A stretch of DNA of 42,337 nucleotides from a virus (Duplodnaviria > Caudoviricetes), in the IMG/VR virus record IMGVR_UViG_3300042868_002047, positions 1-42,337 of that record; one strand, 5' to 3'. The notes under the pieces are model-generated. The model was not told the DNA's origin. It saw only the letters and a program-made list of their open reading frames with translations, and did no database searches. This document shows, piece after piece, positions 10,256 through 17,030 of the stretch (position 1 is the first letter of the stretch; each line of letters opens with the position of its first letter). A program made the translations under genes and the position numbers.

Positions 10256-10284
10256 TCGACAATGGGCTGATAGTGTGTTACACT
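10256..10284 (+). promoter_or_regulatory. sigma70 early promoter P3
   Basis: TCGACA-17 nt-TACACT with extended -10 TGTGn. Confidence 0.7.
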
Positions 10285-10332
10285 ATAGGCCAGATACGAA
10301 AGTATCAAGGTTGATAGGTGCTTAGGCATCTG

Positions 10333-10361
10333 TTGACAGTAGCTGCGAATTGTGATACAAT
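10333..10361 (+). promoter_or_regulatory. sigma70 early promoter P4
   Basis: TTGACA-17 nt-TACAAT with extended -10 TGTGn. Confidence 0.9.
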
Positions 10362-16030: not shown

Positions 16031-16031
16031 C

Positions 16032-16214
16032 ATGACAATCATTTCACAAGCTCGCTCATTCGCAGCCCTCATGGCTAAGGTCTTCCGCAGCAAGCCTGTC
16101 AAGAAGGCCAAGCGCTACCCCGTTATGATCTCGGCGCCTGCTGGTGAGATCGTCGCATGGAATCGTAAGGTAGCTGCCGGTAAGATCAGCCGCAAGGGGT
16201 ATCGGGTATCATGA
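16032..16214 (+). CDS. small basic hypothetical protein
   Basis: RBS TAAGGA before ATG 16032. Confidence 0.7.
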   Translation: MTIISQARSFAALMAKVFRSKPVKKAKRYPVMISAPAGEIVAWNRKVAAGKISRKGYRVS

Positions 16215-16894
16215 GCCCCGAACTCTACCGCACCGACTTCCCTATGCCGGATGACCGTAGCTTTAAGAACTACGGTAAACGCTGGACTGATGAAGAGAAG
16301 GACAAACTCGCGTGGTTGTTCTCTCGATTTAGCCTACCCGGCATCTGCCGTCAGCTTGAGCGCCCTAAGGCAGGCGTCTTAGCCAAGCTCTGCGAGGCTA
16401 ACCTGATTCACCATAGCTACCGTGATGGTAAGTATTACATGGGCGCTAAGCCTGAGCCCGTTGACGTGACATCCGCACGCCAAGCAGGTAAGTCTGCCTT
16501 CTTTGCTCACCTCTACGGCACTAGCGAAACCACAGCTAGCACGATACAGGGCAAGAGCTTTGATGCCTACATCATGGATGAGGTCTTTAAGCACCACAAC
16601 ATTCACGATAGCCTGCATGACGCCATGCGTCACGTCCCGCTGGGTCCCGACCTGCAACAACTTCTTAAGGAACCTACCATGAACACTGCACCCAACATTG
16701 AAACCAAGACCTTCATCAACGGTACTGACGCCAGCGCCATGACCGATGCACAAATCTTTAGCAAGATCGCTACGCTTGAGGCTGAACACAATCGCCTTGA
16801 TACCATCAAGGCCAAGCCTACCAAGCTGGTCAAGGTTATGGAGCAGATCACTGCCGACATCGCCGCGCTGGTGACCTATGTTGACGGTCGGTAA
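16211..16894 (+). CDS. mosaic protein: HTH/Myb-like N-domain, terminase/polymerase motif string, helical C-domain
   Basis: GKRWTDEEK...ICRQLERP...VLAKL; RQAGKSAFFAHLYG; IQGKSFDAYIMDE; IHDSLHDAMRH; internal RBS and ATG at 16679. Confidence 0.8.
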   Translation: MSPELYRTDFPMPDDRSFKNYGKRWTDEEKDKLAWLFSRFSLPGICRQLERPKAGVLAKLCEANLIHHSYRDGKYYMGAKPEPVDVTSARQAGKSAFFAHLYGTSETTASTIQGKSFDAYIMDEVFKHHNIHDSLHDAMRHVPLGPDLQQLLKEPTMNTAPNIETKTFINGTDASAMTDAQIFSKIATLEAEHNRLDTIKAKPTKLVKVMEQITADIAALVTYVDGR

Positions 16895-17030
16895 GCCCCT
16901 CATATGGCAGGGCTACAGCGGCTGGTGGTTATGTGCCTGTATCCCCCACAACGGTAACAAAACCACTGGATCAGGCAGCACCCCATTAGAAGCATACAAC
17001 AACTGGAAGGGGCAGCAACTTGTCACTTGA
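16878..17030 (+). CDS. 50-aa hypothetical protein (not in ORF track)
   Basis: MLTVGKPLIWQGYSGWWLCACIPHNGNKTTGSGSTPLEAYNNWKGQQLVT; fills the gap up to the helicase. Confidence 0.6.
   Translation: MLTVGKPLIWQGYSGWWLCACIPHNGNKTTGSGSTPLEAYNNWKGQQLVT

Follow-up and report, generated by a model that had tools for sequence, protein, structure and literature searches.

Polymerase- and terminase-like motif snippets in the variable linker of a family of phage accessory proteins

The gene at 16211-16894 (+) of the window, i.e. of the whole 42,337-nucleotide stretch of viral DNA analysed here, encodes a protein (P0001) that is neither a terminase nor a polymerase, and which carries in a variable linker short strings resembling catalytic motifs of the large terminase (TerL) and of family A DNA polymerases (PolA). 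Related proteins contain such snippets in frame, often strung together and different from member to member. Judged by the sequence comparisons described below, this feature is real and non-random. The chances appear evenly balanced that the snippets are selected protein-level decoys for host factors which read polymerase or terminase motifs in unfolded or exposed form.

Genomic setting and protein architecture

The window is a whole phage record with a completeness estimate of 98%. Its genes include a T7-type RNA polymerase, which ends the replication module, a family A DNA polymerase (Pol) and a T7-type large terminase, a layout that we take to be phiKMV-like. Since its TerL has 69% identity to the TerL of Curvibacter phage P26059B and the region of the 16211-16894 gene is present in two lake metagenomes, the host is probably a freshwater betaproteobacterium. 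The sequence-only reading of this DNA had called the gene early; the ORF is located in the replication module between primase and helicase, away from the first early genes. A relative (L030/G014) whose Pol is 94% identical, and whose primase and helicase are 96-97% identical, lacks the gene at the syntenic site, and the gene can therefore be regarded as accessory or dispensable. A contig from the second lake study is without a single difference from the window over 16085-16960, and thus the ORF is not an assembly artefact. Sequence variants over the gene were absent from two runs, no RNA data sets were among the listed holders of the region, and Rfam searches of the window, L034 and L036 at the gathering threshold gave no match.

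A small ORF lies upstream (window 16031-16214; L030:4352-4567). Only its last 15 residues are common to both close relatives and the remainder has been replaced, which argues for a recombination-prone site. Two sigma-70-like sites, one of them matching 11/12 positions, were also seen at 10256-10361 near the probable genome start; the total count of such sites in the window is not above that in shuffles.

The features of the gene and its product are as follows.

16211-16894 (+): accessory gene, 227 aa, with HTH domain, variable linker and helical hairpin (ORF; family profile search)
16211-16444 (+): homeodomain-like/GcrA-like HTH, residues 1-78, predicted to bind DNA (pLDDT 90-97)
16445-16678 (+): hypervariable linker, residues 79-156, predicted to be unfolded (pLDDT 44-65)
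16460-16495 (+): TerL Walker A-like snippet, residues 84-95 (p 4e-5 versus shuffles, partly circular)
16478-16519 (+): family A polymerase motif B-like snippet, residues 90-103 (p 2e-5)
16544-16582 (+): TerL Walker B-like snippet, residues 112-124 (p 1e-4; Pfam Terminase_6N E 0.0081)
16601-16633 (+): possible, weak TerL nuclease-motif look-alike, residues 131-141 (profile p 0.16)
16667-16681 (+): Shine-Dalgarno-like AAGGA with in-frame ATG at 16679, predicted second start, kept in the family
16679-16894 (+): conserved C-terminal helical hairpin domain, 71 aa (pLDDT 86-98)

AlphaFold2, run with an alignment of 136 rows, models two confident domains at residues 1-80, with a three-helix HTH core, and 161-227 (pLDDT 86-98). 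In the linker the pLDDT falls below 50 at residues 93-96 and 98-116 and no strands are modelled; low values are to be expected there because the alignment is thin over the insert. The proposal that the motif segment sits between an HTH-like and a helical domain and has no ATPase fold agrees with this model.

The N-terminal domain matched PDB 2LVS (E 1.3e-6) and the GcrA DNA-binding domain 5YIU (E 0.038) in a family profile search. Pfam GcrA (PF07750) was matched at E<=1 by 19 of 136 members (best 1.8e-5), P0001 not being one of them, and phmmer found no match for P0001 among PDB sequences. Like the GcrA-like and T5 D5-like HTH proteins (PF07750, phrog_323), to which matches are weak, the family has an N-terminal HTH with a W-T-x-x-E start; unlike them, its members score below the curated cut-offs and have a different C-terminal domain, and their DNA binding is predicted.

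The hairpin, which is the most conserved part of the family, belongs to no named family. By shape, uL29 is the best match (Z 8.1, rmsd 2.2, 59 aligned positions, query residues 168-227), with a score that is not unusual for helical hairpins. Ribosomal uL29 chains with Z 7-8 appear to make up many of the top shape matches of this domain (16679-16894). By sequence, uL29 was neither among the 25 Pfam families shown nor among 10 PDB profile hits, and a role of the hairpin as a uL29 mimic, resting on likeness of shape without sequence support, was not adopted. The ESM Atlas gave no match at 0.9 or above and no usable feature match for the hairpin.

Because of the conserved Shine-Dalgarno-like AAGGA and the in-frame ATG at the end of the linker, the hairpin is probably also made alone from this predicted internal start, which would yield a hairpin without snippets. 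Of the 19 distinct loci for which DNA is available, 17 have both site and start, one such pair being doubtful, with a position far upstream; E-x(1-3)-M closes the linker in 130/155 proteins versus a shuffle mean of 34.

Motif snippets in P0001 and across the family

The linker strings were scored with profiles built from real enzymes (59 PolAs, 64 TerLs and 63 TerLs of a second type) and compared with 50,000 shuffles of the linker and with 350 background ORFs. They lie where the sequence-only reading had placed them (residue 90 at nt 16478, residue 141 ending at nt 16633), and the strings of the window's own TerL, Pol and RNAP read as it had quoted them. The claimed polymerase motif B is well supported: P0001 matches R-x3-K-x3-F/Y-x3-YG with all five key residues in register, p is ~2e-5, and only 1/350 background ORFs scores as well. 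The stricter pattern R-x3-K-x3-F-x3-YG occurs in 39/59 real PolAs and in 0/350 background ORFs. The claimed string of terminase motifs held in part. Its Walker B-like piece has p ~1e-4, with none of the 350 background ORFs as good; neither Walker B nor motif B had played a part in collecting the respective enzyme sets. The p of 4e-5 for the Walker A-like piece is partly circular, since that TerL set was gathered with an ARQxGK pattern. The nuclease look-alike did not stand out by profile (p 0.16; 73/350 background ORFs as good) and reached p 0.001-0.007 with patterns written after the fact.

The Walker A and motif B snippets overlap and have a common Arg and Lys. Like the large terminase (PF03237), P0001 contains Walker A- and B-like strings in the right order; unlike it, P0001 is not an enzyme, lacks the fold, and separates the two strings by 35 residues as compared to 90-120 in 26 real TerLs. 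Pfam Terminase_6N (PF03237) is the top match on residues 99-133 (E 0.0081), covering 35 of 215 positions at 16.3 bits versus a cut-off of 22. Taken alone this match is not decisive, because unrelated families reach similar E-values in other members. The likeness to family A DNA polymerase (PF00476) consists of the five motif B residues; unlike the enzyme, P0001 has 14 residues only and no palm, matches PF00476 nowhere and shows no motif A or C in the 14-window scan described below.

The window's own TerL is without RQxGK. Thus, the Walker A snippet represents a foreign TerL type. Outside the linker, the genome contains no stretch of 12 nt or more that matches the linker DNA, which together with the missing RQxGK rules out a recent duplication from the phage's own Pol or TerL.

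For the family survey, a profile search at E<=1e-10 gave 1,122 cluster representatives; at E<=0.001 it gave 4,282, among which HTH-only proteins are probably included. The best 150 matches of this search and the earlier matches made up a sample of 158 proteins, of which 155 contain both domains and three were dropped. A second homologue search with a 22-row alignment found only 5 proteins, and scans of genome contigs for the family and for Pol gave no match. Across the 155 homologues the linker varies from 16 to 206 aa; short linkers rich in T, Q, P and E predominate, and enzyme motifs are often found in long ones.

Matches at p<=0.001 to 14 fixed motif windows, which had been picked after inspection of the linkers, were then counted. 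The linkers gave 21 in 2,170 tests, in 13 of the 155 proteins, versus 2.2 expected; owing to overlapping windows these represent about 17 separate places, and the match in P0108 looks like chance. In the flanking domains the same test gave 1/4,340 versus 4.3 expected, and in the N-terminal extensions of 11 members 0/154. The 350 background ORFs gave 11/4,900, three of them from a real split Pol exon and two from loci picked by the Walker A pattern. When whole profiles were scanned with no motif chosen, PolA reached p<=0.01 in 12/155 linkers versus 1.55 expected (7/155 with the pattern-selected columns masked), and TerL in 4/155 versus 1.55, a modest excess. PolA windows of at least 20 bits numbered seven in linkers (shuffle mean 0.02) and none in the flanks. 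Pfam DNA_pol_A matched P0103 and P0136 among 30 members (E 0.0014 and 0.0018), the same two were matched by NCBIfam polymerases among 16 members, and PHROGs searches of 23 members returned no terminase or polymerase family. PolA snippets are thus commoner and better supported across the family than TerL snippets.

These shuffle, flank and background controls make it very improbable that the motif likeness is a product of chance in low-complexity linkers. The motifs are short, the nuclease snippet has a profile p of 0.16, the Pfam scores are below threshold, and the insert found no tblastn match in 50,697 phage records, all of which would fit a chance origin.

PolA motif A snippets were found in P0006, P0018, P0021, P0058 and P0129, the TGR/PNLQ stretch in P0058, P0103 and P0136, and motif B snippets in P0001, P0007 and, more weakly, P0058. 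The motif B pattern with F, Y or L at its mid-position occurs in the linkers of the last three (shuffle mean 0.001). Walker B snippets are present in P0001, P0003 and P0007, RQxGK occurs in the P0058 linker as well, and the nuclease motif is clearer in P0059 and P0062 than in P0001. In P0136 four PolA motifs follow each other in their native order, two of which reach no better than p ~0.01. Of the 155 members, 142 lack any snippet at p<=0.001, the close homologue P0002 among them. Decoy display is therefore not the core job of the scaffold, whose own function, separate from the snippets, is probably DNA binding.

In a tree of the 155 rows, built from a less than careful search and with linker columns not removed by hand, 15 hand-picked snippet rows need 12 changes versus a shuffle mean of 14.5. 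This suggests a repeated origin of the snippets by scattered gains or losses, and only suggests it, because the starred branches force only 2 changes.

Several further observations were made during the survey. P0123, P0132, P0135, P0144, P0150 and P0152 form a well-supported subclade with an extra N-terminal domain of ~110 residues. The N-terminal extensions of P0041 and P0103 contain TerL- and PolA-like strings by eye, none at p<=0.001. The cultured Acidovorax phage ACP17 encodes a snippet-free family member (L002:1977-2492). A 192-aa ORF at L213:966-1544 (-), which does not look like a terminase, opens with a TerL Walker A-like string and is possibly another scaffold with an orphan snippet; this locus had been picked by the Walker A pattern.

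Selection or neutral capture

The snippets could also be unselected debris of polymerase and terminase genes that landed in a tolerant linker after being freed at recombination or homing-endonuclease hot spots at conserved motifs, and that is visible only because motifs are recognisable. We consider this origin unlikely. It would agree with the 142 snippet-free linkers, with the 16-206 residues that the linker tolerates, and with the clustering of homing endonuclease genes near terminase and polymerase genes described in excerpts of PMC10448857. It would also agree with an interruption of Pol in L034, L036 and L037 at residue 457/458, which falls within PNLQ, a motif copied in several linkers; however, the snippets of P0103, P0112 and P0136 run across this site and do not end there. 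The interruptions measure 630-730 bp in these three close relatives (L034:7359-7990, L036:3584-4313, L037:2773-3502) and are probably a mobile intron or similar insert; those of L034 and L036 have no Rfam match at the gathering threshold.

Since only motif pieces are recognisable, random capture could mimic an enrichment. A baseline for such capture was therefore taken from 202,055 coding residues of 12 phage contigs. Seven PolA windows were seen versus 1.0 expected if the linker residues beyond 25 represent random in-frame capture (P 1e-4), and versus 2.6 when every linker residue enters the count (P 0.018). TerL shows a smaller excess, with four windows seen versus 0.9-2.3 expected (P 0.013-0.19). 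PolA windows of such strength were absent from ORFs of less than 400 aa in the 12 contigs. Out of 67 linker and extension queries, one matched a protein of these contigs, namely Pol, and this scarcity of source matches, as well as the missing own-genome match, speaks against debris.

The reading frame points in the same direction. Among captures that keep the ORF open, only 37% would place the motif piece in its native frame, and several linkers carry two to four snippets in one frame. In P0001 the other five frames of the linker reach at best 15.0 bits versus 19.2 in frame; in members without DNA out-of-frame snippets would be invisible.

Furthermore, P0007 has the same motif B and Walker B insert as P0001. 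With the alignment register anchored on the motifs, the two proteins are identical at 8/10 strong-consensus columns versus 7/19 others (Fisher p 0.03), and identity follows the information content of the columns (rank correlation p 0.008). At the level of the family the data agree with the expectation that motif residues stay conserved while linkers vary or motifs are shuffled: different PolA and TerL snippets occupy the same linker, and P0007 keeps the motif positions. Enrichment and residue conservation together point to selection on the mimic residues. If the snippets are neutral after all, they still document a strongly biased capture of gene fragments in phages.

Immune sensors and the decoy reading

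Both enzymes copied here are sensed by bacterial immunity, and for this reason decoy display is taken as the best reading. According to excerpts of PMC13601566, Avs1-3 and Upx sense TerL, SeAvs3 reading active-site residues and ATP, and Avs19 senses family A polymerases according to parts of PMC13581612. Decoy snippets would be captured from the polymerase and terminase genes of other phages and subsequently trimmed, the protein would be expressed with the replication genes before TerL, and the snippets would bind a host factor without triggering it.

The sequence-only reading had named Avs1-3 as the receptors to be occupied. The family pattern supports the selected mimicry part of that proposal; these targets are not supported. 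PMC13581612 reports shape-based engagement of folded cores for at least 12 of 14 Avs families, and both papers describe Avs sensors that envelop the folded core of the target. Avs1-3 are therefore doubtful, as they grip folded domains. The small terminase-like proteins T4 vs.8, Ksap1 and Ksap2 moreover activate Avs2 rather than block it (excerpts of PMC13601566 and PMC11564622). The likeliest targets are instead binders of unfolded strands or short motifs, such as Upx-like sensors, defence proteases or modifying enzymes. Upx has been modelled to thread unfolded strands of the TerL ATPase, as described in excerpts of PMC13601566, and this would suit an unfolded linker. Its recognition has been described as sequence-independent and tolerant of mutations of the catalytic Asp, so that Upx would leave the kept catalytic residues unexplained. 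The best fit would be a hypothetical factor, for example a protease or modifying enzyme of a defence system, that reads catalytic residues as linear peptides.

Selection could also have favoured a role outside immunity, which we judge to be quite unlikely. The snippets might act as minimal nucleotide, metal or DNA binders beside the HTH, titrate a host chaperone or protease, or hinder replication or packaging of a co-infecting phage. All signs of selection fit such roles equally well, the PolA and TerL motifs that are copied bind nucleotides and metals, the enzyme types that the snippets resemble are foreign, and the scaffold is a predicted DNA-binding protein. However, the family-specific flanks of the PolA motifs and their native order in P0136 are more than ligand binding needs, and unfolded 10-20-mers would be unlikely to bind ATP or dNTP tightly. 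In addition, snippets of two unrelated enzymes are interchangeable, and what these enzymes have in common is their detection by defence systems.

The nearest precedent for decoys of this kind is found in the ankyrin-repeat ORFs of Bodo saltans virus, which according to excerpts of PMC5871332 contain catalytic-domain fragments and for which a decoy role has been proposed. As in the P0001 family, pieces of essential enzymes such as DNA polymerase are placed on an unrelated scaffold. In contrast, that system belongs to a eukaryotic giant virus, uses an ankyrin scaffold and carries pieces of the virus's own genes, whereas the phage family has an HTH-hairpin scaffold with concatenated or overlapped 10-20-residue snippets of two enzymes of foreign type. 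The other comparison is with T4 vs.8, Ksap1 and Ksap2, which, like P0001, are small accessory proteins of phages and resemble the terminase ATPase, with Walker A and B kept in vs.8 (excerpts of PMC13601566 and PMC11564622). They differ from P0001 in being folded ATPase-like domains that activate Avs2, whereas the P0001 linker, at 55 residues, is predicted to be unfolded; their central beta-sheet with flanking helices is absent from the linker model, which is of low confidence and rests on a thin alignment. Strings of enzyme-motif snippets in phages were not described in the literature searched, mostly non-subscription papers without supplements, and the available portions of an anti-defence resource (10.1101/2025.06.06.658234) and of a 2026 editorial (PMC13728456) do not mention snippet decoys.

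Overall, the present work adds a family-wide count with controls, members that naturally lack snippets and the predicted internal start. The pattern receptors of bacteria are aimed at features of enzymes that a phage is unable to change by mutation. The family offers natural controls, as some members have snippets and others do not, and the snippets can serve as pull-down baits. The decoy reading predicts host factors that read linear catalytic motifs, beyond the current structure-based models of Avs sensing. More tentatively, it is conceivable, if still doubtful, that phages generally follow a multi-epitope decoy strategy in which catalytic motifs are condensed into short unfolded strings on accessory scaffolds and saturate immune proteins reading polymerase and terminase motifs as linear peptides. 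If this were true, such strings would be ready-made baits for finding linear-motif sensors.
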